DNA of 33,156 bases from an uncultured bacterium (GTDB lineage Bacteria; CAIJMQ01), in assembly GCA_964573245.1 (NCBI GenBank), contig CAZNJA010000012.1:252-33407 (forward strand), read 5' to 3'. The notes beneath the pieces are model-generated. The model searched no databases, was not told the origin of the DNA, and saw only the letters and a list, made by a program, of their open reading frames with translations. Position numbers and translations under genes: made by a program. Below are positions 12,087-33,156 of this stretch, piece after piece. The first letter of the stretch is position 1. Every line of letters begins with the position of its first letter.

Positions 12087-13094
12087 TTGAACAATAAAGA
12101 CTATAAAAAATTAATCTTGTTGAGCCTTTTGTTTGTCTTTGCTTTCAGCATAAAATGTAGTGCTGAAACGTTTTTGGCTCCTTTCCAAGATGCACAGCAA
12201 AATCAACAAACCCAAAACCCTAAGATTGTTGGCGAGTTTTTTGGTGTTCCCGTTCCTATTGAAAACTATTATTTTGCGTGGGGAGTAATTCAGGTGTTTG
12301 GCACAAGATACAGAGGTGTCCCCAAGACTACAGAGGAGATAGAAGAACAGGTCTGGATTGAACTTCTTCTTTCTTATGAAGCTTTCCAGCGGGATGTTAA
12401 AATTAGCCGCGAAACAGTAGAGGGAGAAATAACCAAGGTTCTTAATAGTCATAAGGTTACGTTCGACCGGGAAAACTCGCCGGAAGATTATGCTAAATGG
12501 CTAAAAGAAAATACAGGCGAACCCGTTGAGCTTTTTGAAAATCAGATTGAACATCTTCTTAAAATTGAAGAACTTCGAAACCAGGTTATGGATGGTATCG
12601 AGCCGGTGGTTTCAGAAGAGGAAGCTATCCAGGAATTCCGCAATGAACATAACACTTTGAGCGTAGAGTTAATCCAGTTTGATGAATTAAAACAAGCGGA
12701 AGAGTTTTATAAGAAAGCAAAGGCTAATCCTGAATTTTGGGATAAAGAAAAAGAGAAAAATTCAGATTCTTTTAAACGTCCCGGATTTGTGGCTTTGGAA
12801 TTTTTGATGTATATGTGGAAATTTAATAAGGAAGATGTTTATAAAATGATTGAACTTCAAGTAGGTGAAATATATCATCCTGCTCCTATTTACAAAGGAT
12901 ATGGAGTTTTTAAAATACTTGAAGTAAGACATGCAGCCGAAGAAGATTTCCCGAAATATAGCGCCTCTTATTATGAGCAGCTCAAGATGCAAAAAAAACA
13001 TGAAGGATTTCAAAAATGGCTTGAAGATTTAAAAAAGAAGGCTAAAATCAAAATTTATATAAAATCAACTGAAATATTTCCGAAGGAGCAATAA
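12087..13094 (+). CDS. Exported SurA/PrsA-like chaperone (SurA N-domain plus degenerate parvulin region)
   Basis: Signal peptide, 'LLLSYEAFQRDVKISRETVEGEI', 'LQVGEIYHPAPIYKGYGVFKILEV' and C-terminal 'WLEDLKKKAKIKI' typical of SurA/PrsA. Confidence 0.7.
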   Translation: MNNKDYKKLILLSLLFVFAFSIKCSAETFLAPFQDAQQNQQTQNPKIVGEFFGVPVPIENYYFAWGVIQVFGTRYRGVPKTTEEIEEQVWIELLLSYEAFQRDVKISRETVEGEITKVLNSHKVTFDRENSPEDYAKWLKENTGEPVELFENQIEHLLKIEELRNQVMDGIEPVVSEEEAIQEFRNEHNTLSVELIQFDELKQAEEFYKKAKANPEFWDKEKEKNSDSFKRPGFVALEFLMYMWKFNKEDVYKMIELQVGEIYHPAPIYKGYGVFKILEVRHAAEEDFPKYSASYYEQLKMQKKHEGFQKWLEDLKKKAKIKIYIKSTEIFPKEQ

Positions 13095-13095
13095 T

Positions 13096-13962
13096 ATGAG
13101 CTATTTTGAAGTTTTGGGATTAGAAAAGGAGCCATTCTCTACAAGTCCTGATCCGGAGTTCTTTTATCTTTCTAAGGAGCATGAACGGGCTTTGACCAAT
13201 AGTTTGATAGAGCTAAGATTAAAAAGAGGATTAAGTGTAATTTTAGGAGATGTGGGGACTGGCAAAACTACTCTGTCCAGAAAACTTATACAAGAACTAA
13301 AAGAAAGAGAAGATTTTTGTTTCCATGTGATATTTGACCCCTCATTCGAAAGCGAGCAGTTGTTTTTAGAATACTTAGTTAGAAGTTTTAATTGTCCTAT
13401 CAATACTAACCGCCAACCAACTCTTCTTGACCTTAAAGAATCACTGGAAAGCTTTTTATTCCAAAAGGCAGTTTCTGAAGGTAAAATTATCGCGTTAATT
13501 GTGGACGAAGCTCAAAAACTTAACTCTGTTTCTTTGGAGGTCTTAAGAGTGCTTTTGAATTACGAGACAAACGAATTCAAACTTCTACAATTAATTCTAT
13601 TGGGACAAGAAGAATTTTATCATACTATAATGAACATTCCCAATTTTTTTGACCGTATAAGTTTTAAATTTACTTTAAACCCGCTTGATTACAAGGAAAC
13701 TAAAGAGATGATAGATTTTCGTCTTAAGCAGGCTGGTTATAAAGCCAGAAGACATCTTTTCTTGGAAGACGGTATAAAAAAAATCTATGAGTATACGAAC
13801 GGCTATCCCAGAAAAATAACAATGCTTTGCTATAAGGCTTTAAAGAAGTTAATTTTGGATAACAAATTAGCTGTAGACGGAAGAATGATTGATGAGATTA
13901 TAAAGGAAGAGGAAAAAACGGGATGGTACAAGACAGGATTACCCCTGAAAAGAAATTATTAG
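13096..13962 (+). CDS. ExeA/GspA-like AAA+ ATPase
   Basis: FEVLGLEKEPFSTSPDPEFFY, Walker A GDVGTGKT, Walker B LIVDEAQ, LILLGQ and GYPRKI. Confidence 0.9.
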   Translation: MSYFEVLGLEKEPFSTSPDPEFFYLSKEHERALTNSLIELRLKRGLSVILGDVGTGKTTLSRKLIQELKEREDFCFHVIFDPSFESEQLFLEYLVRSFNCPINTNRQPTLLDLKESLESFLFQKAVSEGKIIALIVDEAQKLNSVSLEVLRVLLNYETNEFKLLQLILLGQEEFYHTIMNIPNFFDRISFKFTLNPLDYKETKEMIDFRLKQAGYKARRHLFLEDGIKKIYEYTNGYPRKITMLCYKALKKLILDNKLAVDGRMIDEIIKEEEKTGWYKTGLPLKRNY

Positions 13963-14615
13963 ACTTAATTGAATCGCCCACCGGCCAAACATTCAAAGAA
14001 GTAAAAAAAAGACGTGGAAGAATCAGCTTTGTTTCTCCGGGCGCTTTAAAAGGAAGATTTTCCTTTTTTAGAAGATTTATAGCTAATAGTTTAGCAAGAC
14101 ATAAAATCGTTTTAGATATTAAAGAAGTCAATTTAATTCTTACTATTTGTATAATTGGTTTTGTAGTTTATTTATCTATGAGTTGGACGGATACTACCGG
14201 TAAATTAAATCAGATTCCCAATCTTGCTTTAGAACTGGCTCCCCAAAAGGATGTTAACTCGTTTTCAGCTGTTTCATTGCTGAAAGAGTTTTCTCATTAT
14301 TCCCAAATAGTAAATTCCAGAAATATATTTGAATTGGATTTGCAGAACGCTTCGCAAAACGAAGAACAAGCAGACGCAATAGAAGAGAAAGTAATTACGC
14401 CTAAAGATGAGTTGATGAAACTTATAGAATATTTCGTATTAGTCGGCGTGTCTTGGTCAGATGACCCGGTTGCAATGATAGAAAACACCGATGCTAAGAT
14501 GACTTATTTTGTCAGAAAAGGCGATGATATTAAAGACAGTATAAAAGTAAAAACGATTTTTATAGATAAAGTTATTTTAGAATATGAAGGAGCAGAGTTG
14601 GAGCTCAAACTCTGA
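13923..14615 (+). CDS. GspC/PilP-like single-pass membrane protein
   Basis: One TM helix, RNIF motif, then HR-like beta domain 'LVGVSWSDDPVAMIEN...YFVRKGDDI...VKTIFIDKVILEYEG'. Immediately precedes the secretin. Confidence 0.7.
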   Translation: MVQDRITPEKKLLDLIESPTGQTFKEVKKRRGRISFVSPGALKGRFSFFRRFIANSLARHKIVLDIKEVNLILTICIIGFVVYLSMSWTDTTGKLNQIPNLALELAPQKDVNSFSAVSLLKEFSHYSQIVNSRNIFELDLQNASQNEEQADAIEEKVITPKDELMKLIEYFVLVGVSWSDDPVAMIENTDAKMTYFVRKGDDIKDSIKVKTIFIDKVILEYEGAELELKL

Positions 14616-14661: not shown

Positions 14662-16263
14662 ATGTCGTATAAAGTCCGTATTTTAACTGTTCTATTTTTC
14701 CTTATTGTCTATCAACCCTGCCTTTTAAATGCTCAAAGATTATCCTTAGAATCTAAAGGGGAAATGTCAAAAAATGTCTCCTTAAATTTCCGAAATATAG
14801 ATGTGATAGAAGCTTTGCAGTATCTATCCGATGAAGGAGGATTTAATATAGCTTTTACTAAAGGAATTAGCGGCAGAGTTACTTTAAAAGCAGAAAAAGT
14901 AACTGTTAAAGATGCTTTTGATATTATTCTCCTTACAAGTAATTTGGCTTATGAAAAAAGGGGAAATATCTATAATGTAATGAGTGATAAGGAATATCAG
15001 GAGCTATATGGAGAAAAATTTGCAGATATAAGACAGATTAGAGTCTTGCGGTTGCAATACGCTATTCCCAAGAGAGCGTTTGATCTTTTAGATGCGTTAA
15101 AAAGCGATGTTGGGCGTATACTGGTTGACGAAGAAACAGGCACTGTCATGATTATGGACACTCCGGGAAAATTAGACCAAATGCAGAATGCTCTGGATTC
15201 CTTAGAGGAAAAAAGCGTTGTTGAGGTTTTCAATCTACAATATGCAAATGCTAAGGAAGTAGAGGAGCACCTTAAAATCCAACTTGAAGACAAGAAAGTA
15301 GGCTCAATTAGGGCGGATGAAAGAAATAATCAAATAATCATTCAGACATTACCCGGACGAATGGGGGAAATAAGAGAATTAGTCAAATCTCTGGACCAAA
15401 AGACAAAAGAGGTTTTAATAGAAGCAAAAATAATAAGAGTTGCTTTTTCTGATGATCTTGAAATTGGTATAAAGTGGGAATTTTTATTTGAGCAAATGAC
15501 AAAACATGGATTAGAATTTATCGGTTCACATGCTTATGACACTATGTATAGAACCGGGCAAACAATTATTGCAGACTATCCTCAAATAGAATCGGCAGCT
15601 AATTTACCTGCTGCTGCCAAACAACCTATTTTAGGGAAGGTTTTTTTGGGCGCGGTAGGTGAAGATAGCTTTGAAGCACTATTAACTTTTTTAAATACTA
15701 TAGTAGATGCTAGACTGTTGGCTAGTCCCAAAATAGCAGTAGTTAACAACCAAGAGGCAAAAATACATGTGGGCAGAAGAGAAGTGTATCTGGAAACAAC
15801 TACTACACAATCTGAATCTAATACTACCATCGTCGAAACTCCTAAATGGGTGGATACAGGTGTTCTGTTATCGGTAATCCCAAAAATTAACGATGAAGGT
15901 TATATCACTATGAATATAAAGCCCGAAATTACAAGTATTGCGCGTTGGTATAGAAGCCCTACCGGCAGAGAATATCCGGTAACGGAAGTATCTACTGCTG
16001 AAACAAAAGTTATGGTAAAAGACGGCACGACTATTATAATTGGGGGCTTAAGAAGAAAAGAAGAGATTCAAACTATTGAAAAAGTGCCCTTTCTTGGTGA
16101 CATATGGTTGCTGGGAAAACTTTTCCGTTCAGAAGAAACGACAACGATACAGTCTGAACTGATAGTATTTATTACTCCTCATATTATCAGCGGTAATCAA
16201 TTTATAAAAGGAGATGAGCACAAGGCAAGGGAACCAATTGCTCCATATAGAGAATATGAATAA
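14662..16263 (+). CDS. Secretin (GspD/PilQ family)
   Basis: Signal peptide, N0 'VSLNFRNIDV', two N-domains (LQYA...), 'EVLIEAKII', 'ASPKIAVVNNQEAKIHVG', 'VKDGTTIIIGGL', 'KVPFLGDIWLLGKLFR' and 'ELIVFITPHI'. Confidence 0.95.
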   Translation: MSYKVRILTVLFFLIVYQPCLLNAQRLSLESKGEMSKNVSLNFRNIDVIEALQYLSDEGGFNIAFTKGISGRVTLKAEKVTVKDAFDIILLTSNLAYEKRGNIYNVMSDKEYQELYGEKFADIRQIRVLRLQYAIPKRAFDLLDALKSDVGRILVDEETGTVMIMDTPGKLDQMQNALDSLEEKSVVEVFNLQYANAKEVEEHLKIQLEDKKVGSIRADERNNQIIIQTLPGRMGEIRELVKSLDQKTKEVLIEAKIIRVAFSDDLEIGIKWEFLFEQMTKHGLEFIGSHAYDTMYRTGQTIIADYPQIESAANLPAAAKQPILGKVFLGAVGEDSFEALLTFLNTIVDARLLASPKIAVVNNQEAKIHVGRREVYLETTTTQSESNTTIVETPKWVDTGVLLSVIPKINDEGYITMNIKPEITSIARWYRSPTGREYPVTEVSTAETKVMVKDGTTIIIGGLRRKEEIQTIEKVPFLGDIWLLGKLFRSEETTTIQSELIVFITPHIISGNQFIKGDEHKAREPIAPYREYE

Positions 16264-17383
16264 CGACGAAAAAGAAATTTTAGGTAAAAGCGGCAGAAAT
16301 TATAAAAAGATAATCGGGTTTATTATTCTGTTTATTTTGTTTGGCGCCGCATGCGCCGGGATAACTTATTATTTTTCTACCCAAAATATAACTCAAAAGA
16401 AAGATAAACAAATGCAAGGGTTTTCGCAGGAGGCCGAGAAGTTAAATAGTCTAAACAAATCCCTTGAAGAAAAATTTTCCAAATTATCCGCAGATTACGA
16501 CAGGATTTATAAGGACAGAGAAAATATAATTGAACAATCAAAAAGAATAATACAAGAAAAGAATGAGTTGTTAAATTTTAAGCAATCCTTTGAGGAAGCA
16601 ACTGAAGAGAAAGATAAACTTCTAAAAGAAAAACAACAACTTTCTAAAGAGGTTGAAACCCTTAAAGCACAGATGGGACAAGCCAAAGAAAAATATGGAA
16701 AAGAGATTACTGAAGCAGAGGAACAAATTAAAAACTATCAAGCGGATATTGTTGAGAAAGAAAAAGTTAATGAATCGTTGATTAAAAAGACTAACATTCG
16801 GAAATTAGAAACTACAATCAAAACATTAAAAAACGAAAACAGGGATTTGACTAAAAAGTTAAATGTAATTGGAGAAGAGAGTAATAGTCTAAGCAAGCAG
16901 TTAGAAAAACAAAAACAGGAATATAATAAAAATGAGTTAGCTTCGCAATCCCGTTATAATAAATTGCTTAATAAATACGAAGAGTTGGTGGCAAAACACG
17001 GTAAAACAGTTCAGGAGCAAGAAGCTTTGCAGGAAAGACTTGATGAATTTCCGCGTAAGATAGCTAATTTAGCGGGTGAAAATAAGAGACTCGTTAAAGA
17101 AACATCGGACATGCATTACAACTTAGGGCTCTTTTATTTCGAAAAGCAGGAATACAAAAGAGCAATTCCTGAGTTTGAGAGGGCTATAAAAATAAGTCCC
17201 CAGGATCCCGAGTCGTATTATTATTTAGGCTATATCTATGCAGAATATTTCATGCAACGAGAAAAAGCGATTAAATATTTTGATAAGTATCTGGAGTTAG
17301 CTCCGCGCGGAACTCATTCGGACTGGGTAAAGAGATATATATATAGTTGGCGAATTTGGGATAAAAAAGAAAACATAGAATAA
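16256..17383 (+). CDS. Membrane-anchored long coiled-coil protein with C-terminal TPRs
   Basis: ATG at 16256 overlaps the secretin stop (alternative ATG at 16214). N-terminal TM, ~230 aa K/E/Q-rich coiled coil, TPRs 'HYNLGLFYF...AIKISP...YYYLGYIY'. Confidence 0.8.
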   Translation: MNNDEKEILGKSGRNYKKIIGFIILFILFGAACAGITYYFSTQNITQKKDKQMQGFSQEAEKLNSLNKSLEEKFSKLSADYDRIYKDRENIIEQSKRIIQEKNELLNFKQSFEEATEEKDKLLKEKQQLSKEVETLKAQMGQAKEKYGKEITEAEEQIKNYQADIVEKEKVNESLIKKTNIRKLETTIKTLKNENRDLTKKLNVIGEESNSLSKQLEKQKQEYNKNELASQSRYNKLLNKYEELVAKHGKTVQEQEALQERLDEFPRKIANLAGENKRLVKETSDMHYNLGLFYFEKQEYKRAIPEFERAIKISPQDPESYYYLGYIYAEYFMQREKAIKYFDKYLELAPRGTHSDWVKRYIYSWRIWDKKENIE

Positions 17384-17386: not shown

Positions 17387-18094
17387 GTGTTTATCACACA
17401 GTTATTAATTATTCAGGTAATTGTTTTTGCAGGGTTACTGTTTTTTCTTCGTTATGTTCTAACCCGCAATGTTGCCGGAGCTACGACACATCTTGAAGAA
17501 CTTAGCAAGGATTACACTAAAAAACAGGAAGAGACAAAAAAAGCTTTGGAAGAAGCCAAAAAAGAATCTGACCAAATATTAACGGATGCAAGAAGCGAAG
17601 CAACGAAGTATAAGAGCAAATCATCCCAGGAAACCCAACAAGAAAAGGACAGAATCATCCAGGAAGCACATCAAAAAAGCGAGCGAATGCTTCAACAAGC
17701 AGAGAAGACATGCGAGTTGCTAAAACAGGAAATAGAAGACAAAATATCTATAAAAGCAACGGAAAAAGCCGTCGAGTTAATCCAGAAAGCTCTCCCGGAC
17801 AAATTCCAGAAAGAACTTCACAGTCTTTGGTTTAAAGAATCGCTAAAAGGTGATTTTCAACTGGAAAGGCTGCATTTACCCGAGGATATTAAAGAAGTAG
17901 AAGTTATTTCAGCTTATCCTTTAACTGAAGAGCAGAAAAAAGAATTGAAAGCAAAATTATCCAAGAAATTAGTCAAGGATATTGAATTGAAAGAAAAGAT
18001 TAACTCTAAATTAATAGCAGGTATTGTAATAATTTTAGGAAGTGTAGTCATTGACGGCAGTTTAAAATATAGAATACAGCAGGAAACCAGATAG
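17387..18094 (+). CDS. F-type ATPase b/delta-like fused stator subunit
   Basis: N-terminal TM, b-like helix (ALEEAKKESDQILTDARSEA...RIIQEAH) and delta C-terminal motif 'VISAYPLTEEQKKEL...LIAGIVIILGSVVIDGSL'. Confidence 0.85.
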   Translation: MFITQLLIIQVIVFAGLLFFLRYVLTRNVAGATTHLEELSKDYTKKQEETKKALEEAKKESDQILTDARSEATKYKSKSSQETQQEKDRIIQEAHQKSERMLQQAEKTCELLKQEIEDKISIKATEKAVELIQKALPDKFQKELHSLWFKESLKGDFQLERLHLPEDIKEVEVISAYPLTEEQKKELKAKLSKKLVKDIELKEKINSKLIAGIVIILGSVVIDGSLKYRIQQETR

Positions 18095-18096: not shown

Positions 18097-19584
18097 GTGA
18101 ACCAAAGCCAATCTTTAAATAAATCCTATTCTTTGGGTGTAGAGGTTCGAGAAGTCGGCTATGTTAAGTCCGTACGTAAATTTATAGTAGAGGCCAAAGG
18201 ATTACCGTCTTGTTTTAATGGCCAAATTCTCCAGTTTGAAAAAGGTGGCATAGGATTGGTCATGGGATTCAAAGAAGACAGTGTCCAAATCCTTGTGTTA
18301 AAAGCAGATGTTCCTATACGTTTAAATGATGAAATCCACAATAAAGGTCAATCTCTCTCTTTGCCTGTAGGAGAAGCTTTTTTAGGAAGAGTGGTAAATA
18401 GCTTGTCTGAACCGGTGGATAATCGCGGACCTATAAAGTCAAAAGAATTTGCTTCTGTCTTCAGAGACGCTCCTGCGCTTATGGACAGAGTTCCCGTATA
18501 TGAGACAACAGAAACAGGCACTATAATGTTAGATGCTCTCATCCCTATTGCTAAAGGACAGCGTGAACTTTTATTAGGAGACAGACTCACCGGGAAAACC
18601 ACTGTAGGAATAGATGCGATTCTTAATCAAAAAGATAAAAATATAATATGCATATATTGTTGTATGGGAAAACCGCATTCCAGTCTTTTGAAGATACTAC
18701 GCCTTTTACAAGAAAGAGATGTTATGCCTTACACTGTTGTGGTAAGCGCTGTTGCTTCTGCTTCGGTTGGAGAACAGTATTTGGCTCCTTACACTGCTAG
18801 TATGTTAGGCGAATACTTTATGTATAATGGGAAAAATGTGTTAGTAGTTTTCGATGATTTAACTAGACACGCTTGGACATATAGGCAAATTTCCCTGCTT
18901 CTTGAACGACCTCCTGGCAGAGAAGCTTATCCTGGAGATATTTTCTACATCCATTCTCAATTAATCGAAAGAGCTGCGGCTCTAAAACCTGAGTTAGGTG
19001 GCGGCTCAATGACTTTTTTGCCTATAGTAGAAATACTTCAGGGTGATATTACCGGCTATATTCCCACTAATTTAATATCTATGACAGATGGCCAGGTCTA
19101 TTTTGATACCAACCTTTTTTATAAAGGTTTTAAACCGGCTATTGATTTCGGGTTATCGGTATCCAGAATCGGCAGTAAAGCGCAATGGCCAGCCATGAAA
19201 GAACTTAGCGGAACTTTAAGATTAGACTATATTAAATATCAAGAACTTTTGAAAATGACTCGGTTAAAAACCATCAGCTTATCCAAAGAAGCGGAGATGA
19301 CCTTACAACGCGGTGAAGTTATAGCTCAACTTATTGTGCAAGACAAAAATAATCCTATATCTATTGAAAAACAGGTCTTATATCTTTATGCTTTAAAATT
19401 AAAAGTCTTAGATGAGCTTTCTTCCCCTGAAATAAAAGAATTCAAGGAAAGATTCCCGGAACTTGTACAAAAACAATATCCTGAAATTCTTATAGAATTA
19501 AAGAAAACAAAAACTCTTTCACCTTCCATCAAGGATAACTTAAACAAAGCGTTAAAAGAATACTTTAAAGAAGCGACAAAATAA
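18097..19584 (+). CDS. atpA: Divergent F1-ATPase alpha subunit
   Basis: KGQRELLLGDRLTGKT, YRQISLLLERPPGREAYPGDIFY, IPTNLISMTDGQ and arginine finger SVSRIG. Confidence 0.93.
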   Translation: MNQSQSLNKSYSLGVEVREVGYVKSVRKFIVEAKGLPSCFNGQILQFEKGGIGLVMGFKEDSVQILVLKADVPIRLNDEIHNKGQSLSLPVGEAFLGRVVNSLSEPVDNRGPIKSKEFASVFRDAPALMDRVPVYETTETGTIMLDALIPIAKGQRELLLGDRLTGKTTVGIDAILNQKDKNIICIYCCMGKPHSSLLKILRLLQERDVMPYTVVVSAVASASVGEQYLAPYTASMLGEYFMYNGKNVLVVFDDLTRHAWTYRQISLLLERPPGREAYPGDIFYIHSQLIERAAALKPELGGGSMTFLPIVEILQGDITGYIPTNLISMTDGQVYFDTNLFYKGFKPAIDFGLSVSRIGSKAQWPAMKELSGTLRLDYIKYQELLKMTRLKTISLSKEAEMTLQRGEVIAQLIVQDKNNPISIEKQVLYLYALKLKVLDELSSPEIKEFKERFPELVQKQYPEILIELKKTKTLSPSIKDNLNKALKEYFKEATK

Positions 19585-19772: not shown

Positions 19773-20627
19773 ATGCCCTATCTTGCAGAAATCAAAAAAG
19801 AAATAGAGTTTTATAAAGATTTTTCTTCTCTCGTGGAAACACTTAAAAACTTAGCCCTTTTTCAATTCCATACGGCACAAAAAAAATTCAGGATCTTTGA
19901 GTTGTTCCCTAATGTAATAAAAAGTTTTTTTAATATACTTGATATTGAAAATATAAATCATCCATTTCTCCAAGATTCCGAGAAGGGAATTTTAGGTGTA
20001 GTAGCCATTACTTCAGATGCGGGGCTTTTAGGTGGGCTTAATAATCGAGTAATAAATATAGCAATGGATTTTTTAAGACAGAGAAAAGCCAAGATCATAG
20101 TTATTGGTAAACAAGGACAAAAGTATATCCAGGGACTGAATATACCGATTCTGACTCTACCTGGGGTTGAAGATAATCAAAGAGCTTTACTGGCTATGCA
20201 AATTAGGGATTATATTGTGGATGAGGTGGCTAAGGGTAATTTAAGCTCGGTGAAAATAGTATATCCGCAGGCATTTTCTCTTACTGCGCAAAAAATAGAA
20301 GTTCTGACTCTTTTACCATTGAATGAATGGCTCCCCAAGACCGCCGAAAATACAACTAAAAGCTCTTCAGAAATTCTATTTGAGTCTTCAATAACTGACA
20401 TCGTTGAATATTTGGTATATCTTTTTATTGGTCAGAAAATTTATGAAATTTTGGGCTTGAGCCGTCTTGCGGAATATGCCGCAAGATATATTCACTTAGA
20501 AGAAAGTACGGATAAAATTAAAGAAGATATTAAGAAATTGCAACTTAAATATTTCAAGATAAGACATGAAATAATTGATCAGCAGATGCGGGAACTATCA
20601 GCAGCAAAGGCTATAATGTCCAGATAA
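19773..20627 (+). CDS. atpG: Divergent F1-ATPase gamma subunit
   Basis: 'VVAITSDAGLLGGLN' and C-terminal helix 'EYAARYIHLEESTDKIKEDIKKLQLKYFKIRHEIIDQQMREL'. Lies between alpha and beta. Confidence 0.88.
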   Translation: MPYLAEIKKEIEFYKDFSSLVETLKNLALFQFHTAQKKFRIFELFPNVIKSFFNILDIENINHPFLQDSEKGILGVVAITSDAGLLGGLNNRVINIAMDFLRQRKAKIIVIGKQGQKYIQGLNIPILTLPGVEDNQRALLAMQIRDYIVDEVAKGNLSSVKIVYPQAFSLTAQKIEVLTLLPLNEWLPKTAENTTKSSSEILFESSITDIVEYLVYLFIGQKIYEILGLSRLAEYAARYIHLEESTDKIKEDIKKLQLKYFKIRHEIIDQQMRELSAAKAIMSR

Positions 20628-20645
20628 AAATTTAAAATTTAAAAT

Positions 20646-20711
20646 GCCCTTAGAGATTGCAGGGCAATCTCAAGGACTTTAGTCCCGGAAATCCTTTGGA
20701 TTTCTCGGGGC
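20646..20711 (+). repeat. Three-hairpin (four-way junction) REP-like element, copy A
   Basis: GAGATTGC-agg-GCAATCTC, GGACT-tt-AGTCC and GAAATCC-ttt-GGATTTC, closed by GCCC/GGGC. Confidence 0.8.
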
Positions 20712-20853
20712 AAAATGACAAATCAAAGTTATAAAAATTACAACAACCAAAATCACTTGTCGCTGGTTGGAATGTTAGTAAGTAGGTTATTGCGTATTGT
20801 TTTCAGTTTGTTTTATCGTAATTTATTTCTTTTTACATTTTAATGTGTAATTT

Positions 20854-20918
20854 CCCTCTGGAATTTCGTGGAAATTCCGAGGACTTAGTCCCTGAAATTG
20901 CAAGGCAATTTCTAGGGG
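20854..20918 (-). repeat. Three-hairpin REP-like element, copy B (inverted relative to A)
   Basis: Reverse complement reads CCCC-ta-GAAATTGC-ctt-GCAATTTC-ag-GGACT-a-AGTCC-tc-GGAATTTC-cac-GAAATTCC-aga-GGG. Confidence 0.8.
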
Positions 20919-20998: not shown

Positions 20999-22399
<1,401 letters not shown>

Positions 22400-24966: not shown

Positions 24967-25524
24967 ATGAGACAAAGAAAAGGGATAATTTTTATTCTCT
25001 TGCTCGTGAGTCTAATTTTTGAATTTCATATGCCGGAGGTTGCAAAAGCACAAGAAGAGAAAGTAGAGCAAGAAGTGAAGGAAATCCTGATAAAAGTTCA
25101 ACCCCGTATCATTGCTTTGCCGAAGAATGTAGAGATTTCTAAAGTTCATCTTTTAGCTGCAAGGATACGTTCAGTAGAATTAAGAGAGCTTTGCAATCAA
25201 TATAATGCTGTAAGTATTAAGAGATTATTTAAAATAAAAGAAGAATCTGATGGAATCAAACCGGTTAAAGGAAAGGACCCCCTGGTAAGTAAAGAAAAAG
25301 AAAAAACTAAAGAAAAAGTTGACCCCACAAAAGTCTTTACAAAAGCTAAACGGAAAGAACTATTGGCTCAAGACCAAGAAGTAATTGAAGTAAAAGATAC
25401 TTTTTTAATACAGTTTAAACCGAGTGACGATATTAATATGAAACAGGTAGCCAGTGAATATAGCGCGCTTTCAGTGGTATTGTTTGCCGAATATGTAGAG
25501 ATAGTAGGAGAGGAAGAAAAATAA
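24967..25524 (+). CDS. Secreted protein resembling a stand-alone subtilase (S8) prodomain
   Basis: Signal peptide (AKA), 'EILIKV', 'LRELCNQYNAVSIKRLF' and 'TFLIQF...DINMKQVASEYSALSVVLFAEY' match the S8 propeptide pattern; it stops with no catalytic domain. Confidence 0.6.
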   Translation: MRQRKGIIFILLLVSLIFEFHMPEVAKAQEEKVEQEVKEILIKVQPRIIALPKNVEISKVHLLAARIRSVELRELCNQYNAVSIKRLFKIKEESDGIKPVKGKDPLVSKEKEKTKEKVDPTKVFTKAKRKELLAQDQEVIEVKDTFLIQFKPSDDINMKQVASEYSALSVVLFAEYVEIVGEEEK

Positions 25525-25533: not shown

Positions 25534-28500
25534 ATGGAAAGTAAAACTTTCACAAAAGAAAAATTCAAAGCAGGATGGTTTAAAGTTGGGCATATATTCC
25601 ATAGCCCTTTAGTTTTTATACTTGTATTTACAATCCTGTTTTTTGCTCTTTCTTCTCACACTGCATTTGCCCGTACTAAAGTCCAGTCAGGTTATACAGG
25701 TGAAATAACGGGCACAAGTCATACTATTGATATTGAGCCGGTGGATTTGGATAAAGCATTTATTATCTTTGATTTTCGCTGCACCACAACTTCTGATACT
25801 AGTCAGTATCCTTCAGCGCATGCCTGGGCGGCGAGATTTGTGGATAATGATACCATAGAATTTCACCGTTATTATGGTGCTAGTAGTGCAGGACACAGTA
25901 TTTCCTACTATGTGGTTGAGTCTGATGCTTATCAGGTTGAATATTTTGAGACGTCGTTAACTGCAGGTCAAATAACTAAAACCGTCAATTTATCTAACCT
26001 GACCCCTTCCGGTAAAGCCGTAGATTTTATACCGGGTCAAGCTTTCGTGGTTGCTCGTGTGACGGATTATAATAATACCAATGGAAACTCAATGAACGGC
26101 TGGTATACCAATTTTGAGCTGACATATAATACCTCTCCTACTCATGACCAGATATTTTTGCAGCGCCGAACGTCTGAATCCGGTGACACTTCGGCATGTA
26201 ATATCTGGGGGTTTGTAATTCAACTTTATGACGATTCAGAAGTTTATTATACTGCCGGCGGGTTTAATTTTGTTTCCGGCGGAGAATTACAGCAGTTCAG
26301 CGATATCCGTGATAGCTCCGGCGGCCTCTCATCACTTGACCGTTCAAAAGCATTTATGATTTTTCAGATGGATGTCAATAATTCAGCATTGACTGCCGAG
26401 ACAAGAGGCGCGCTTGCTTCAAGCACGCAGATATGCTGGAACAGGCGAAGTGCATCATCCACATATACCAATCCCTGCCATTTATTTTGGTATATTATCG
26501 AGCAGGGGACGTTAGGTGAAGCCGAGTCAGGAACACGTTTTATTCCATCAGGTACATTATCGGAAACACATACCTTTTCAAGCCCGCTTGATGTAAACTT
26601 AAGTTTTTGTCGCAGTGCCCAGGATTCAACCGGTCCGGGTACTCTTTATTACAGGGTGCGCCATACAACGCAGGTTATAAACGGCGGCGCTCAATTGGAG
26701 TTACGCAGAGGCGAGTCAGGCCAAAATGCCTTCTGTGACTTTTTTGCCGTTAAGCTGGAACCGATGATATTGTTCTCACCTAATGATGGAGGAACTTTTT
26801 ATGCCAATAGCGACTACGATATAACTTGGTATGCTCCGGAATGTCTTGGACCTTATAACGCTTCAAATAATCCCCCTTATGATAATGATGTAGAGATATT
26901 ATTGTCCAATGACGGCGGGACCAACTGGATACCGGTTATGACAACCGATAACGATGAATTTGAGACAATCACTTTTCCTTCAGGGCCAGGTACTACCGGC
27001 AACACAATGCGCTTTAAGGTAAGGGACCCAGATTGGAATAAAGTTGCCGGAGTAGAAATTGGCTCAAGGACTTCCGCAGGCGACTATTACAGCAGTGATA
27101 TTTCCGATATTGATTTAGAGATAGTTCCGGTTATTGATATTGTTTCTCCTGACGGAGGTGAAGTGTATGCTTATGAAGAGGATATTACTTTTAAGTGGAA
27201 TTATTACGGAGATTCGACTTCCAAGACCGTAAAAATAATGTATGATTCAAGCGGCGGCGGCGGCGGATATCCCGTAACCATTGCAACCGGGGTTACAGCA
27301 GCCTCAGGCGCCCCTGACCCGGTAAACGGAAACGGCAGCTATGCTTACGGAGCGAGTAACTGGACAAGCACGCCTTTTCCATTATCAAACACCTTAAAGA
27401 TAAGGGTTGAAGATGAAGCCGACAATCGGGTGAAAGGGAGTTCAGAATTAAACTTCACCGTAACAGGTGAGATTATTTTAGAAGCTCCTAACGGCGGACA
27501 GATGTGGAAAATAGGAGAGACAGAAGATATTACTTGGACTGCCGCGGGAGCAGATTTTATGACCAATGGAGTTAATATTCTTGTATCACGTAACTTAGGT
27601 GGAAGTTGGAGTAATATTGAAAATGGTGTAGTTGCTGACAGTTCACCATATCATTGGACGGTAGAAGCGCCTGCGTCAACCGAATGTTTAATAAAAGTAC
27701 AATCAGCTGATTTTCCGTTAATGGTGGATGAATCAGATGATATTTTTGAGATACGGCAGGTCATTACAGTCACAGAACCGAGTACACCGGGTGAGGTTTG
27801 GAAGGTCGGCGAATATAAAGATATAGAATGGGAGTTGCAGGGTACAATTGACAAAGTAGAAATTCACTATAAGAAAGGAGTAGGCGGTGCATGGATACCG
27901 ATAACAGAATCAGAATATCCGACCGGGTATCCTGCAGGCAGCCCTTACAAGTATACTTGGCAGGTCCCTAACGACATATATGATGAGGTGTATATCAGAG
28001 TACGGGATTTTGATAACAATGTGATTGAATATATTACCCCTTATATTTCCATCAAAGGTAAAATAAGCGTAGATGCTCCTAACGGAGGAGAGGAATATAC
28101 CGTAGGACAAACCGATGTAGTTATTACCTGGTCCTCAACGGGGACTATGACCGGAGAATATGTCAGGGTTTGGTTTGCTAAAGATGGAGTTGATTATGCT
28201 TATATGGATGTTACGGCTGCGATGGGATATCCATCAGGTAAGGATGTTGACAGTGGGAGTTTAGCATGGAATCCTGTTCCTGATGAGATTACCGAGACAG
28301 GCAAGATAAAGGTTGAGTTAATCGGTGATGAAAGCAGTGTTTATGATGTCTCAAATGATACCTTCTCAATTCAGGGTGGTTTAACTCTTACCTATCCTAA
28401 TGGCGGCGTAACCCTTTATGTTGGCGCTACAGATAGTTCACGCACTATTACCTGGGACGTAGATGGAAGCTTAGTTGGGCAACAGGTTACACTTACCTAT

Positions 28501-31500
28501 ACTATAGGCGGTAGCGGGGATAAGGCTATTGGTTCAACGGGTGCGATGGATGGGAGCTTTGACTGGGGTGCTTCAGCTGGTATTCCAGATGACATCGGAG
28601 ATAATCTAATTGTTAAGGTTGCCCTTTCCAGTAAGCCTGCCACTGTCTTTGATGTTTCTGACAGTGCAAATAAGATAAGAGGAAAGATTGCCAGTATCTC
28701 CAGCCCCACATCAGTTGATGAATGGTATGTGGATTCGGATATGTACAATATAGCCTGGACCATGGAGAACGATGCTGTAAGTATGGGAAATCTGGAGATT
28801 CGCTATTCAACCAGCGGCGCTTCATTCCCTGCTATTCAGGTTGTTGAAACGAATGTCAGTCCATTGGCTTCTCCCGTATCATGGCAGGTTCCTGATGAAG
28901 CGGGTATCATTACCACTACGGCACAGATAAAGATATTTGCTATTAATTATGCCTCCGACATACTCAAAATATCCGATGAATTTGAAATTAAAGGTAAAAT
29001 TACTCTTACACGGCCAGACCATGGCACGGATTATACATGGTATGTAGGGACTGATGAGAATATAGAATGGACGACTAAAGGCATAACCGATATTGATAAA
29101 GTAAATGTATATTGGGATGAAGGTACCGAAACATATACCAATCAGATTGCCGATTCTATAGCCAATGTCGAGGGGTTCCTCTGGCAGAATATACCCGCAG
29201 CAGCTATGGGAAATACAACACGGGTAAAGGTTGCAGGTTATGGCGATTACAGTGATGTATTGGATACCTCTCCGCAGGATGCTAAATACATTACGGTAAA
29301 AGGGAGAGTAGTAGTAGATTCGCCTAACGGTGACGAAGAATGGGTTTCCGGAACTGAGTATCCGATAACTTGGACACCTTACGGAGATATCGGAAATGTG
29401 CACCTGGAATACCACGACGGCATAGGATGGCATGATATAACCAACCCGGTAACAGGTGTTCCCGCCACAAAGTTGAGTGAGCCCTGGATGATTCCCGCTG
29501 ATGCTGCACCTGGAAGTGCTTATAAGATAAAGATTACGGCTTTAGCTCCCTATGATGATGTTACGGATGAATCTGATAACCTATTTACAGTCAGGGGTTC
29601 TCTTGACCTGACCTATCCTGACGGAGGGGCAGCGCAGGATTTTAACGTAAATGATATAGAGGAGATTCAATGGACTAAGACAGGAGCTATAGGAAATATA
29701 GAATTAAGATATTCTATAACCGGCGGTGAACCATATTTACTTGCAAATCAGATTGCTACTAATGTTTCTCCTACTAACCAGCCTGAAGGCGAAAAATATG
29801 GCGCAGGTGTATATTATTATCCTTGGTCAATACCTGCACCGGCCTTAAGCGATACTGTAAAGATCAAGATATTCCTTATATCGGATGAAGATAATGTTTA
29901 TGATGAATCTGTTAGCACCTTCAAGGTTAAAGGAAGCTTGCAGCTTACCGGCGAGGCTAACGGCGAAGGAGCTCCAACTTGGAAGGTGGGGGAAAATAAG
30001 ACAATCACCTGGGATGTAGTAGGGGCTTTAGGGAATATAGATATATATTATGCCAAAGACGGAATTCAATTCCTTGATAGTGTTGCCCTTGACGTTCCCT
30101 GCGGCACAGGAGGTAATGGCTCGTATTTATGGGAACCCATTCCTAATGATGTTATTGATGGCGCTAGAAACGAAAACATAAAACTTAAGATTACTACGCC
30201 TGCAGGCGATGTAAGTAGCACCTCTCTTAACCCGATTATTATTCAGGGACAAATTATAGTAGCCCAGCCGGACCCGGTCTTATATGTTGATGACCCCGAT
30301 AATCCAAACGATTATTACACTATAACCTGGACTACCAAGGGTATAGTCGGCCAAGTAAAATTGTCATACGATACAGACGGGAATGGTACTTATAGTAATT
30401 TTATAGAACAGATTGATAATGACGGCGATTATGATTGGGATATACCTAATTCAATTGGAAGTCAAGTCAAGTTTAAGGTTGAAGACTCTGTTTATAACCA
30501 GGTTTTTGGGATTACAACCGATTTTGAGATAAAAGGACAGATAAAAGTCACCGCTCCCACATCAGCCATTAAAGACGCCAGTGCATGGATTGTAGATAAT
30601 GCTGCATCCGGGCTTCCCAGCCAGCAGCTTATAGAATGGACCAATTACGGTGATTTGGGAGATGACGGCGGTAGTAATTATTATGTAGTGATAAAACATG
30701 CTGCAAACGGTGTGACTTTTGATAGCGAAATAACAAATGTTGCCAGTGGCAATAATGGCCCGCAGACCTTTAACTGGACCATCCCGGATAGTATCGCGAC
30801 TATTAATAGGATAAAGGTAATTGATAAAAACGACAGCAGTGTTTATGACACATCGGATGAGTTTGAGATTAAAGGTAAGATAGTAGTAACCGAGCCGGGC
30901 CCGGCAATAGGGGATGACTATTTTATAGGAGGTACTCCTATAGATATAACCTGGGACTATGCCGGTACCTTAGGCAATATAGATATGTTCATCAGTTATG
31001 ATGACGGAGTAAATTGGGAAGTGGATCCGTTTGCTACTGTTGATGTAGGGTATTCTCAGCCTTATCAGCTTTCTGTGCCCGATAATCCCACTACTCAAGG
31101 AAAGATTAAACTTGAACAGACAAATGACAGAACCTATGTCTACTCAGAATCTAAAAGGTTTGATATAAAAGGTTCGGTCTTTATGGATTCGCCTACTTCA
31201 TTGACCGAATGGACGGTTGATGCTGCCGATAATAGAATAGAGTGGCATACTACGGGTTCAATAGCAAACGTAACCCTTGATTTGGATACCACCAGCGGAG
31301 GCGGCGGTTACTCAATACCTATTGTTGCTTCAACACCGAATGACGGCGAATATATTTGGAGCATACCTGTCGGACAGTATGTAGCTGTAACCTCAGGTAA
31401 TCTAACATCAGACCAGTGCAAGGTGCGAATCAGGGATGCCAGCGACCCTACAGTGGAGGATTTTTCCGATGATTTCAAGATAAAACCGATGTTAGAAATA

Positions 31501-33156
31501 ACCGCTCCTGTAGGAGGAGAGAAGTGGTATCGCGGGACCAGCGAGTATATTACCTGGAATGCACCTAAAGGAAAGGTAGATAATTTAAAGATAGAATATT
31601 CATTAGATGCAGGTTCAACCTGGGAGACGCCGGCTGTTACGGAATCGGTTCCCTCCTCTGCCGGACAATTTCTCTGGCTTATACCGAATACACCGAATGA
31701 TGATACGGTGGTAAAGATATCTAAAGTAGGGGATGCGGATATTTCTGATGTTTCACCGGTTTGGTTCTCATTGTTTGCTGATGTTGAATTGTTACAACCC
31801 AACGGAGGTGTGGACCTTCCTATCGGAAGCGATTATCTGATAACGTGGAATCCTATAGGTTCTCTTACGGAATGCAGGATAATGTATGCTACGGTTGAAA
31901 ATCCAACTGCAGGGGATTGGAAAGTCTGTAAAGATGCCAGTGAGCAATTGGCTGATATTCCCGACCCGGTAACAACAACTCAGTTTAGCTGGAGAATACC
32001 CGATGAACCCTCTACACACGTGTTGGTTAAGATTTATGAGAAGTCACATGCTGATGATGTGCTGGACATATCCGTAGCTGATAACGCTATTATAGGAAGT
32101 ATCACCGTGGACCATCCCACAAACGGCGACGTAATGATAGCCGAGAAACCATATTCGATTCAATACACAAAAACAGGTTCTTTGACCAACTTTAAAATTG
32201 ATTACCATGACGGAAGCCAATGGTATCCTATAGTTGCCGATACCACTGATTATCCTTCATATACCTGGGCTTCTGTTGATGATAATATTGGCTCTACTAT
32301 TAAAGTAAAAGTAACAGATGTTAACAATACCACAGTTTACGGCGAATCCAGTGCAGATAACATAATAAAAGGAGAGATAGACCTAACCGCTCCCAACGGC
32401 TATGAAACATTAGTTGTAGGCGTACCGTTTGATATTACCTGGGATAAATGGGGTAATATCGGTAATATAAAAATAGAATACTCAACAGATGATTTTGCAG
32501 ACGATATACGCACTATAGTTGATAGTTACGATGCAAATAGCAGTCCTCGCTCTTGGACTCCGGGAATAGATGACATTACCAATGCGGATAATGTCAAAGT
32601 GAGAGTTACCAGTATCGGCGGAATTCCGGTTACGGATGAATCACTAAATCCGTTCAAGATTCAAGGCAAGATAACCAACGTCCAACCCAGTGGCAGCGCG
32701 GTTATATGGAAGAAAGACGAATCTAAGAATGTTACCTGGGACCAGGATGGTAATATTGATAGTGTAGATATTCTATATAAGATTATTAGCACCGATACTT
32801 TCAATAAGACCCTTGTTACTAACCATACCGGCCACGCTGACGGCCCCAATTCAGCAGGGATTACAGTGCCCGATGAAAACTCGGAAGACTGCTGGGTACA
32901 GGTATTGGACCACGACAATTCCGATGTTAAAGCCTCTTCTGTTGCGGCATTCTCCATCAGGCCTATTATAACGGTTTCAGAACCTGTGCTTGACAGTAAT
33001 ATCGTTGTTGACTCTAGTAATACTGATGCTATTGTTTGGAGCTTAAACGGTTCTACTAAGGTGACACTCGTAGATATTCTATATAGTACAAACGGTATTG
33101 GCGGGCCTTTTGACAAAACCATTGACACAGGAGTAGATGCGACCTTAGGTAAATAC
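25534..33156 (+). CDS. Giant secreted repeat protein (putative adhesin), >2541 aa, 3'-truncated by window edge
   Basis: Manual frame +1 translation shows no stop from ATG 25534 to the end. Begins MESKTFTKEKFKAGWFKVGHIFHSPLVFILVFTILFFALSSHTAFA|RTKVQSG (long signal peptide). Absent from the ORF track, presumably because no stop codon is present. Confidence 0.95.
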   Translation, partial: MESKTFTKEKFKAGWFKVGHIFHSPLVFILVFTILFFALSSHTAFARTKVQSGYTGEITGTSHTIDIEPVDLDKAFIIFDFRCTTTSDTSQYPSAHAWAARFVDNDTIEFHRYYGASSAGHSISYYVVESDAYQVEYFETSLTAGQITKTVNLSNLTPSGKAVDFIPGQAFVVARVTDYNNTNGNSMNGWYTNFELTYNTSPTHDQIFLQRRTSESGDTSACNIWGFVIQLYDDSEVYYTAGGFNFVSGGELQQFSDIRDSSGGLSSLDRSKAFMIFQMDVNNSALTAETRGALASSTQICWNRRSASSTYTNPCHLFWYIIEQGTLGEAESGTRFIPSGTLSETHTFSSPLDVNLSFCRSAQDSTGPGTLYYRVRHTTQVINGGAQLELRRGESGQNAFCDFFAVKLEPMILFSPNDGGTFYANSDYDITWYAPECLGPYNASNNPPYDNDVEILLSNDGGTNWIPVMTTDNDEFETITFPSGPGTTGNTMRFKVRDPDWNKVAGVEIGSRTSAGDYYSSDISDIDLEIVPVIDIVSPDGGEVYAYEEDITFKWNYYGDSTSKTVKIMYDSSGGGGGYPVTIATGVTAASGAPDPVNGNGSYAYGASNWTSTPFPLSNTLKIRVEDEADNRVKGSSELNFTVTGEIILEAPNGGQMWKIGETEDITWTAAGADFMTNGVNILVSRNLGGSWSNIENGVVADSSPYHWTVEAPASTECLIKVQSADFPLMVDESDDIFEIRQVITVTEPSTPGEVWKVGEYKDIEWELQGTIDKVEIHYKKGVGGAWIPITESEYPTGYPAGSPYKYTWQVPNDIYDEVYIRVRDFDNNVIEYITPYISIKGKISVDAPNGGEEYTVGQTDVVITWSSTGTMTGEYVRVWFAKDGVDYAYMDVTAAMGYPSGKDVDSGSLAWNPVPDEITETGKIKVELIGDESSVYDVSNDTFSIQGGLTLTYPNGGVTLYVGATDSSRTITWDVDGSLVGQQVTLTYTIGGSGDKAIGSTGAMDGSFDWGASAGIPDDIGDNLIVKVALSSKPATVFDVSDSANKIRGKIASISSPTSVDEWYVDSDMYNIAWTMENDAVSMGNLEIRYSTSGASFPAIQVVETNVSPLASPVSWQVPDEAGIITTTAQIKIFAINYASDILKISDEFEIKGKITLTRPDHGTDYTWYVGTDENIEWTTKGITDIDKVNVYWDEGTETYTNQIADSIANVEGFLWQNIPAAAMGNTTRVKVAGYGDYSDVLDTSPQDAKYITVKGRVVVDSPNGDEEWVSGTEYPITWTPYGDIGNVHLEYHDGIGWHDITNPVTGVPATKLSEPWMIPADAAPGSAYKIKITALAPYDDVTDESDNLFTVRGSLDLTYPDGGAAQDFNVNDIEEIQWTKTGAIGNIELRYSITGGEPYLLANQIATNVSPTNQPEGEKYGAGVYYYPWSIPAPALSDTVKIKIFLISDEDNVYDESVSTFKVKGSLQLTGEANGEGAPTWKVGENKTITWDVVGALGNIDIYYAKDGIQFLDSVALDVPCGTGGNGSYLWEPIPNDVIDGARNENIKLKITTPAGDVSSTSLNPIIIQGQIIVAQPDPVLYVDDPDNPNDYYTITWTTKGIVGQVKLSYDTDGNGTYSNFIEQIDNDGDYDWDIPNSIGSQVKFKVEDSVYNQVFGITTDFEIKGQIKVTAPTSAIKDASAWIVDNAASGLPSQQLIEWTNYGDLGDDGGSNYYVVIKHAANGVTFDSEITNVASGNNGPQTFNWTIPDSIATINRIKVIDKNDSSVYDTSDEFEIKGKIVVTEPGPAIGDDYFIGGTPIDITWDYAGTLGNIDMFISYDDGVNWEVDPFATVDVGYSQPYQLSVPDNPTTQGKIKLEQTNDRTYVYSESKRFDIKGSVFMDSPTSLTEWTVDAADNRIEWHTTGSIANVTLDLDTTSGGGGYSIPIVASTPNDGEYIWSIPVGQYVAVTSGNLTSDQCKVRIRDASDPTVEDFSDDFKIKPMLEITAPVGGEKWYRGTSEYITWNAPKGKVDNLKIEYSLDAGSTWETPAVTESVPSSAGQFLWLIPNTPNDDTVVKISKVGDADISDVSPVWFSLFADVELLQPNGGVDLPIGSDYLITWNPIGSLTECRIMYATVENPTAGDWKVCKDASEQLADIPDPVTTTQFSWRIPDEPSTHVLVKIYEKSHADDVLDISVADNAIIGSITVDHPTNGDVMIAEKPYSIQYTKTGSLTNFKIDYHDGSQWYPIVADTTDYPSYTWASVDDNIGSTIKVKVTDVNNTTVYGESSADNIIKGEIDLTAPNGYETLVVGVPFDITWDKWGNIGNIKIEYSTDDFADDIRTIVDSYDANSSPRSWTPGIDDITNADNVKVRVTSIGGIPVTDESLNPFKIQGKITNVQPSGSAVIWKKDESKNVTWDQDGNIDSVDILYKIISTDTFNKTLVTNHTGHADGPNSAGITVPDENSEDCWVQVLDHDNSDVKASSVAAFSIRPIITVSEPVLDSNIVVDSSNTDAIVWSLNGSTKVTLVDILYSTNGIGGPFDKTIDTGVDATLGKY
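25678..26757 (+). repeat. Four ~80-100 aa H-type-lectin-like beta-sandwich repeats (protein level)
   Basis: Units VQSG..VDLDKAFII..IEFHR..SYYVVE; FIPGQAFVV..IFLQRR..WGFVIQ; LDRSKAFMI..ICWNRR..FWYIIE; AESG..LDVNLSF..LELRRG..DFFAVK. Confidence 0.55.
26761..33156 (+). repeat. Twenty complete plus one partial ~100 aa Ig-like repeats (Kre9/KNH-N, 'Ser-Thr-rich GPI-anchored' type)
   Basis: Recurring hxhxxP(N/D)GGExWxxGxxxxI(T/E)W...hxhxYSxDGGxxW...YxWxhP...hKhKh...DxSDxxFxI(K/Q)G, e.g. APNGGQMWKIGETEDITW (27484), APNGGEEYTVG (28075), SPNGDEEWVSG (29320), APVGGEKWYRG (31504). Confidence 0.85.

Follow-up and report, generated by a model that had tools for sequence, protein, structure and literature searches.

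We analyzed a 33,156-nucleotide (nt) stretch of DNA, called the window throughout, from contig CAZNJA010000012.1 of an uncultured bacterium (assembly GCA_964573245.1). Positions 2–11734 hold housekeeping and regulation genes. The part from 12087 to 33156 carries 13 genes, all co-directional on the plus strand. These are a secretin module resembling part of a type II secretion system (T2SS), four subunits of an F-type ATPase, three exported or membrane proteins and the 5′ part of a giant gene (Table 1). An initial annotation, made from the letters alone, had listed the same genes, strand and spacing, with a final open reading frame (ORF) of more than 7.6 kb. The ORF coordinates and Pfam matches bear this out.

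The genes are tightly packed at first. Between 12087 and 19584 they are separated by gaps of 1, 3 and 2 nt, by overlaps of 40 and 50 nt and by a single gap of 46 nt, and only 3 nt lie between the secretin module and the fused b/delta subunit of the ATPase. Spacing is looser afterwards: 188 nt from alpha to gamma, 380 nt from gamma to beta, and then 78, 521, 48 and 9 nt.

Table 1. Features of the window between positions 12087 and 33156 (aa, amino acids; PPIase, peptidyl-prolyl isomerase; TM, transmembrane helix; TPR, tetratricopeptide repeat)
Feature	Position	Strand	Basis
Exported 335-aa SurA/PpiD-like periplasmic chaperone (parvulin-type PPIase-like)	12087–13094	+	hydrophobic N-terminal segment 8–27
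AAA_22, ExeA/GspA-like ATPase (secretin-assembly type)	13096–13962	+	PF13401, E 3.5e-19
GspC/GspB-like single-pass membrane protein	13923–14615	+	PF11356 T2SSC, E 6.1e-7, residues 107–230; weak T2SSB; TM 62–89
Outer-membrane secretin	14662–16263	+	Secretin, E 1.6e-44; Secretin_N; STN
Inner-membrane-anchored coiled-coil protein with C-terminal TPR	16214–17383	+	TPR_1/2/11 at 299–343; TM 30–55
F-type peripheral stalk, b (TM and coiled coil) fused to a C-terminal delta domain	17387–18094	+	ATP-synt_B 7–136; OSCP 166–232
F1 alpha, Omnitrophota 'symbiotic' clade	18097–19584	+	PF00006, E 1e-68
F1 gamma, divergent	19773–20627	+	PF00231, E 6.6e-40
Two inverted copies of a dispersed palindromic repeat in the gamma–beta spacer	20640–20925	.	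read in the sequence; outside the machine
F1 beta	21008–22399	+	PF00006, E 1.1e-66
Exported 202-aa protein	22478–23086	+	signal-like segment 3–24; kept in the sister species G003
436-aa protein: RAYT/IS200-like (HUH) N-terminal domain, TM 239–257, extracytoplasmic C-terminal domain	23608–24918	+	Y1_Tnp, E 5.7e-7
Exported 185-aa protein, no family assigned	24967–25524	+	hydropathy
Giant T/D/G/S-rich surface protein, 5′ part of more than 2541 aa, with N-terminal signal/anchor	25534–33156	+	frame open to the contig end

Two ATPase loci in one genome

The window encodes the head and side stalk of an F-type ATPase. Both large head subunits pass the canonical family models: alpha scores 546 bits against atpA (TIGR00962, cut-off 484) and beta 539 bits against atpD (TIGR01039, cut-off 463). 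Their motifs can be read directly. Alpha has the Walker A sequence GDRLTGKT and keeps the SVSR arginine, and the catalytic motifs of beta, one of 15 residues and DELSAAD, are intact. Alignments of alpha to solved alpha structures begin at its residue 9 but at residues 16–25 of those chains, so its N-terminal arm is shorter. Gamma reaches 102 bits against TIGR01146, under the cut-off of 194. The b/delta protein scores 58 bits against TIGR01145, where the cut-off is 57.5. Its OSCP match spans profile positions 100–167 only, so the delta domain is not full-length, and in an alignment of 15 relatives conservation lies chiefly in this delta part.

The window lacks subunits a, c and epsilon as well as the T2SS genes GspE and GspF, as the initial annotation had said; c, epsilon and GspE are found only on other contigs. 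The assembly is 1.46 Mb in 110 contigs and 93% complete. On one of these, C11, an 80-aa epsilon adjoins a 75-aa F-type c, and both are preceded by a conserved 297-aa anchor protein that we label p297. The short epsilon is a beta-sandwich only; it covers profile positions 1–83 of 130 and is therefore not full-length. Gamma, epsilon and c all fall under the canonical NCBIfam cut-offs, and c falls under every NCBIfam cut-off. Divergent from p297, upstream, run a 156-aa ORF, a 576-aa GspE, a 403-aa ORF of GspF size and more co-directional ORFs. This places GspE and the GspF-size ORF less than 3 kb from p297–epsilon–c. This back-to-back GspE is one of five or more full-length GspE/PilB genes in the genome. 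The T2SS parts are distributed, with the secretin and GspC-like protein in the window, GspE and the GspF-size ORF on C11, and pseudopilins G, J and K shown in the clusters of relatives.

p297 combines a signal sequence, a beta-sandwich (37–107), a three-helix bundle (115–197), a TM helix and a variable acidic tail. The TM helix is strongly conserved, with W227, I230, F236 and W248 invariant. A predicted structure (mean predicted local distance difference test score, pLDDT, 76.8) shows the beta-sandwich, the three-helix bundle and the TM helix. The protein has no Pfam family, and its model had no Foldseek match in the PDB at E ≤ 0.001. The wide VIA-align search returned generic helical bundles only, the best at Z 10.4, under the tool's meaningful level for helix bundles. 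In the ESM Atlas it matches unnamed clusters only, mostly from Omnitrophota.

No subunit a was found. A search of the genome with PF00119 gave no match even at E ≤ 10, and a control search recovered subunit a in 9 of 14 known genomes. Since the genome is 93% complete, absence of the gene is not proven for the organism. An ATPase separate from this one, which the initial annotation had suggested looking for, does exist: a V/A-type enzyme with subunits A and B on contig C5 and a double-hairpin c and subunit I on C16. The same annotation had called the window ATPase "Fo-less", and this does not hold, as c and a short epsilon are on C11 and only a is missing. It had also held that its idea would fail if a, c and epsilon lay elsewhere in the genome and this were the sole, canonical ATP synthase. 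The part concerning c and epsilon proved true; the remainder did not.

Related clusters and the host lineage

We compared the locus with others in a genome collection, whose genomes and loci are labelled G and L; G000 is the source genome, G003 a second species of its genus and G206 an Omnitrophota genome. In a first set of 18 loci (L040–L057) the cluster usually starts with the giant ORF and p297, which stands free or makes up the C-terminal part of that ORF, and continues with epsilon, c, b/delta, alpha, gamma and beta. The order is permuted in six of them (L050 and L052–L056). Subunit c is present in 16 of the 18, the misses being L046 and a contig that begins at b/delta. p297 is present in 13; four misses have upstream DNA that is too short, and L048 has room yet lacks it. 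Downstream of beta, L040 continues with a small MshEN protein, GspE, GspF, a Peptidase_MA protein, GspG with N-methyl pilins, GspJ and GspK. GspE was confirmed also in L048 and L057 and GspF in L057, and some cluster GspE proteins carry a PilZ end.

A search for alpha over 401 genomes gave a continuous range of E values, with no clean split into two kinds of alpha. From the 150 best matches we took a second set of 40 Omnitrophota loci, chosen solely for having enough flanking DNA. This synteny survey, which the initial annotation had proposed, returned a conserved order of giant gene, p297, epsilon, c, b/delta, alpha, gamma, beta, GspE and GspF. Subunit c occurs in all 40 loci, and b/delta, gamma and beta in 39 each. 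GspE follows beta in 39 of 40, and the exception is cut by a contig end. GspF is found in 37, epsilon in 35 and p297 in 34. An upstream ORF of at least 2000 aa is present in 29, every one cut by the fetch boundary. In 13 of the 40, p297 lies within an ORF of at least 1000 aa or is joined to its end. Five genomes lack p297 next to epsilon and c; in four of them, G206 included, it is encoded at another place. The giant protein of the window is itself 25–31% identical over long stretches, with E down to 1e-173, to Omnitrophota giant ORFs that precede p297 and the ATPase.

No subunit a was found in these clusters. Blastp with three canonical a proteins found it in none of the 40 sampled Omnitrophota loci, and the operon-gap ORFs tested in the L040–L057 set belong to other families. 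PF00119 was also searched in 20 genomes, those of L040–L058 and G003. Nine had a match over the cut-off, one a match below it and ten, with G003 among those giving nothing, no match at all. One of the nine positive cases is the canonical operon of L058. In five genomes that were fetched, a lies in a separate operon on a contig other than that of the accessory locus; four of these operons have a canonical alpha (40–46% identical) beside c and b, and the fifth has c and b only. The remaining three positive genomes were judged from contig numbers and positions only.

Among 58 c subunits from the clade, 40 have glutamate at the position of the ion-binding carboxylate and 18 a non-acidic residue (Q in 10, G, S and A in two each, I and T in one each). 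The F1-facing loop RNPS is present in all 58, and the glycine packing motif in helix 1 of four canonical c rows is replaced by LGPS. Judged from these sequences, the ion-binding carboxylate of c appears to be dispensable in the wider family.

Two genomes tie the secretin module to the ATPase. In G206 a single co-directional run reads c, b/delta, alpha, gamma, beta, GspE, GspF, GspG, GspK, ExeA, GspC-like protein, secretin, coiled-coil TPR protein, a homologue of the 436-aa protein (p436), a 4548-aa giant gene and p297. Its ExeA is 60% identical to that of the window. This continuous cluster makes the window's secretin module part of the same supercluster. G003 retains the full gene order of the window together with a separate p297–epsilon–c locus, and the GspC-like and coiled-coil TPR homologues hold the same positions in G206 and G003. 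The conserved linkage of secretin module, F-type ATPase and giant gene on which the initial annotation had built is therefore real, in one cluster in G206 and as the whole order in G003.

The phylum of the window is represented by nine species in the collection. Only two have the alpha, G000 and G003 (same genus, 85% identical). The nearest named alpha is from Candidatus Ratteibacteria and the next are from Omnitrophota, at 64–70% identity. By these sequences the host is a member of Ratteibacteria, not Omnitrophota. We built an alpha tree from 53 of 95 alpha rows and four beta outgroups, leaving out 42 canonical rows. An accessory clade of 23 rows, from Omnitrophota, Planctomycetota, Lentisphaerota and the window, has SH-aLRT support of 96 and stands apart from respiratory F-type alphas; canonical alphas of Omnitrophota are placed elsewhere in the tree. 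The window and G003 alphas fall within sets of 10 (support 95) and 11 (97) rows whose other members are from Omnitrophota and one Nitrospiraceae. Of six Ratteibacteria genomes, G000 and G003 have alpha, p297 and ExeA, and G001, G002, G004 and G005 have none of the three. This pattern fits one acquisition of the whole system, and the sequence relationships indicate that the Ratteibacteria lineage probably acquired the machine from Omnitrophota. The genes have since been kept. Between G000 and G003 the nonsynonymous rate (dN) is far below the synonymous rate (dS) in all 12 genes giving a value, with dN/dS of about 0.04–0.29, a rough estimate in which dS is saturated. The giant protein is 58% identical to its G003 orthologue.

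Parts of this association are in the literature, as the initial annotation had suspected. A non-respiratory F-type ATPase beside type-4a pilus clusters has been described in every class of Omnitrophota (Seymour et al. 2023, Nat Microbiol, PMC10066038), with the two clusters no more than 10 kb apart in 57 of 66 contigs. The main text of that paper groups the ATPase alpha with those of Mycoplasma types 2 and 3 and proposes roles in attachment and motility. It handles giant ORFs separately, and makes no mention of the missing a, the anchor module or loss of the c carboxylate. The window resembles these 'symbiotic' F-type loci in the clade of its alpha, in the T2SS- or type IV pilus-type genes nearby, in its small genome and in its giant ORFs. 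It differs in its Ratteibacteria host and in a split operon, with b/delta–alpha–gamma–beta placed after the secretin module and p297–epsilon–c elsewhere. T2SS-like loci with a gspD-type secretin and a Rotamase_2 PPIase have been reported upstream of Omnitrophota giant genes (West-Roberts et al. 2023, 10.1101/2023.11.21.568195), an arrangement like that of the window. In the text of that preprint 'ATP synthase' does not occur and 'ATPase' occurs once, as HATPase, which puts the F-type ATPase outside its description. The text of a 2026 preprint (10.64898/2026.06.07.730766) counts alpha and beta as an incomplete F1Fo only. These three were the only sources found, supplements excluded, that join giant genes, Omnitrophota and ATP synthase. 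The core association is thus already published in outline, and its function is predicted only. New here are the second phylum, Ratteibacteria after Omnitrophota, and the operon split in two, which indicates that the system tolerates division into one locus of head, stalk and secretin and another of anchor, epsilon, c and GspE/F. The value of the present analysis lies in detail and testable hypotheses rather than in discovery.

A proposed surface machine and its alternatives

Rotary F-type ATPases are textbook ion-coupled machines. The reading we lean towards, from gene order and family membership, is that two pieces of a single surface machine, common to the Ratteibacteria lineage and Omnitrophota, lie in the window. 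One piece would be the outer-membrane side of a T2SS-like apparatus, made up of the SurA-like chaperone, ExeA, the GspC/B-like protein, the secretin and the coiled-coil TPR protein. The other would comprise b/delta, alpha, gamma and beta, which together form the head and side stalk of the 'symbiotic' F-type ATPase, with the giant gene after them. The remainder would be on C11, where p297, the short epsilon and c stand back-to-back with GspE, the GspF-size ORF and further genes. In such a machine it seems fairly probable that the ATPase acts as an ATP-burning F-type motor without a channel subunit, serving the giant-protein/T2SS-like apparatus. ATP hydrolysis would turn gamma, epsilon and the c ring with no movement of ions. 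Mechanical work would pass through the membrane to the conserved single-pass anchor module, which is free here and forms the C-terminus of the giant protein in many Omnitrophota. GspE/F, the pseudopilins and the secretin would export or expose the giant protein. The anchor helix might contact the ring (the rotor), the b helix (the stator) or both. The operon is split, with head and stalk beside the secretin and anchor, epsilon and c beside GspE/F, and the two halves may therefore dock at separate sites on the secretion machine.

A more specific form of this proposal, which we hold only tentatively and think improbable as it stands, makes the c ring an output shaft, which would be why the ring persists with no channel and often with no carboxylate. 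The anchor helix would dock on or in the ring, and ATP-driven rotation, relayed across the inner membrane, would twist, tension or reel a giant fibre leaving through the secretin. If so, this would be an F-type rotary actuator for an extracellular protein, and the split operon, each half of which still adjoins a T2SS part, would point to stator and rotor docking at different sites on the secretion machine. More broadly, rotary catalysis would have found a new use in a widespread channel-less F-ATPase that keeps its ring and is tied genetically to a giant surface protein and to secretion. Such an enzyme may also account for the way in which ultra-small bacteria, probably predators or parasites, cope with proteins tens of thousands of residues long.

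Several observations weigh against the reading we lean towards. The kin that share the gene order are not independent, and the Ratteibacteria pattern is a single event. ExeA and secretin were not seen by blastp (E ≤ 1e-3) within 20 kb after GspK in six other Omnitrophota genomes, which restricts the demonstrated secretin link to part of the family. Here p297 is free rather than fused to a giant protein, and the assembly does not reach the 3′ end of the giant gene in the window. The proposed contact between p297 and the ATPase draws on gene order and the conserved TM helix only. The c subunit here keeps its glutamate, as do most of the clade, which would fit residual ion binding. The genomes are incomplete, G003 being 81% complete.

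Some of these points would suit an ordinary ion-coupled F-type ATPase or synthase. Its a subunit would be missing from the assembly or have diverged beyond recognition, and its secretion neighbours would reflect only a habit of gene order. Alpha and beta pass the canonical atpA and atpD cut-offs, the glutamate of c is in place, the b/delta stalk that usually holds subunit a is retained, and 110 contigs at 93% completeness leave room for a lost gene. We nevertheless rate this as quite unlikely. PF00119 finds nothing here at E ≤ 10, nothing in G003 and nothing in 10 of the 20 genomes searched, a is in none of the 40 loci, and the gap ORFs tested are something else. Where a genome does have a, the gene belongs to a second operon of canonical type. 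In addition, the c carboxylate is lost in 18 of 58 sequences, and the V/A-type ATPase of the cell brings a membrane sector of its own. The initial annotation had preferred another idea, a membrane-tethered F1 motor standing in for GspE and the pseudopilus and threading the giant protein through the secretin. Seen from the window it has some appeal, since GspE, GspF and pilin genes are missing there and the ATPase genes come directly after the secretin module. The relatives make it very improbable, as in their clusters beta is followed by GspE (39 of 40), GspF (37 of 40) and then pseudopilins G, J and K. The genome itself has its five or more full-length GspE/PilB genes, with one GspE set adjoining p297–epsilon–c.

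F1 and FliI/FliJ are homologous in architecture. On that homology, the ATPase might instead be a FliI/FliJ-like energiser of an export gate, or an unfoldase, that helps a very long protein across the inner membrane and does nothing once export is complete. With their signal or anchor segment, the giant proteins must cross this membrane, and the ATPase genes lie between the giant gene and the export genes. We give this a small chance. The c subunit with its invariant F1-facing loop and the membrane-anchored b/delta stalk have no counterpart in FliI, no FlhA-like gate was seen in the loci, and FliI/SctN family models score the window ATPase at 198 bits at best against a cut-off of 619. Least probable of all, to the point of being hardly credible, is a decaying remnant of a transferred operon that has no function in its host. 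The division over two loci and the 380-nt gamma–beta spacer with its mobile palindromic repeats would fit decay, but every frame is intact, the catalytic motifs are kept, and both species retain the genes with low, if rough and saturated, dN/dS.

Mycoplasma type 2 is reportedly the gliding G1-ATPase. The nearest functional precedent, by analogy, is the type 3 F1-like ATPase of Mycoplasma ('F1-like X0'), which is required for the MIB-MIP surface system (PMC12994834). As described in that source, the Mycoplasma systems share with the window system F1-derived alpha, beta, gamma and epsilon subunits working with surface proteins, no ATP synthesis and no subunit a. Their partner protein, like that of the window system, combines a signal peptide with an external domain and a C-terminal TM. 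Their clusters differ in lacking c and b/delta and in having a 12-TM protein. Family models keep the two apart. The window alpha scores 389 bits against MMOB1660 (cut-off 600) and 298 against MSC_0619 (520), and beta scores 433 against MMOB1670 (850) and 381 against MSC_0618 (570; all NCBIfam). In a PDB search with the window subunit, the M. mobile G1 beta ranked below every canonical beta.

Like the window ATPase, N-ATPases (the alternate F1Fo type) come as an additional F-type operon, non-canonical in gene order, alongside the main ATPase. N-ATPases retain subunit a and pump ions. Against the alt_F1F0 models, alpha scores 497 (cut-off 750.5), beta 488 (752) and gamma 34 (282), all under the cut-offs. 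By curated family models, then, the window ATPase is outside both the Mycoplasma type 2/3 and the N-type families. On the secretion side, the ExeA/GspA–GspB–GspD module of type II secretion has the same order of AAA_22 ATPase, GspC/B-like protein and secretin. The window differs in that all its scores are under the NCBIfam equivalog cut-offs and that coiled-coil TPR and ATPase genes follow directly.

Neighbouring genes and minor features

The 335-aa protein has only a weak Pfam match, to Rotamase_2 (E 0.013). It has 264 homologues at E ≤ 1e-5, mainly in Omnitrophota, some with PF13145 or PF13624; its identity as a chaperone follows from homologues named peptidylprolyl isomerase or SurA N-terminal domain protein. 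The ExeA-like ATPase scores 181.5 bits against pepcterm_ATPase, under the NCBIfam cut-off of 324.5. The secretin, one of four secretin genes in the genome, scores 247 bits against PilQ and 241 against GspD, each under its NCBIfam cut-off. As listed, the ORF of the coiled-coil TPR protein begins inside the secretin gene and shares its last 50 nt (16214–16263), and a later start codon may be the true one.

The repeat in the gamma–beta spacer is about 70 nt long and multi-hairpin, and blastn finds copies or parts of it on many other contigs. The insertion looks recent, because the sister species G003 has only 3 nt between gamma and beta. Elsewhere in the window, Rfam gave no match at the gathering score, and scans for promoters (51 against 40.6 expected) and terminators (11 against 10.1 expected) were near chance.

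Regulatory genes lie near several of these loci. In the window a HAMP histidine kinase and a sigma-54 (NtrC-type) response regulator (3297–6383) are encoded 6 kb upstream of the cluster. A response regulator and histidine kinase directly follow c on C11 (C11:32286–34156; L010:1717–3185), and a response-regulator GGDEF protein precedes c in L057. The latter two, with the PilZ-ended GspE proteins, hint at control by cyclic di-GMP or by two-component signalling.

Some related operons are unusual. L052, L054 and L056, of Lentisphaerota type, have two tandem alpha paralogues in the order p297, alpha, alpha′, epsilon, c, b/delta, gamma, beta, and the two alphas fall in separate clades of the tree. 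In L142 a single 795-aa ORF (L142:11968–14355) spans the positions of alpha and gamma, either as an alpha–gamma fusion or through a sequencing frameshift. In L048, a metagenome-assembled genome of Planctomycetota, a PD-(D/E)XK nuclease lies between gamma and beta and a NERD-domain ORF just upstream of c. In L051 a 23S rRNA-intervening-sequence protein lies between c and b/delta. The insertions in L048 and L051 are selfish or defence-type ORFs within the ATPase operon.

Three genes stand between beta and the giant gene. Blastp finds no homologue of the 185-aa protein in G003. The 202-aa protein has a central domain that is a paralogue of the C-terminal domain of the 436-aa protein (42% over 101 aa; 24580–24882). 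The 436-aa protein places a transposase-fold domain inside a membrane protein of a secretion locus. It scores 33 bits against REP_Tyr_transpos, under the cut-off of 80, and weak homologues of it occur in Omnitrophota clusters L155, L167 and G206.

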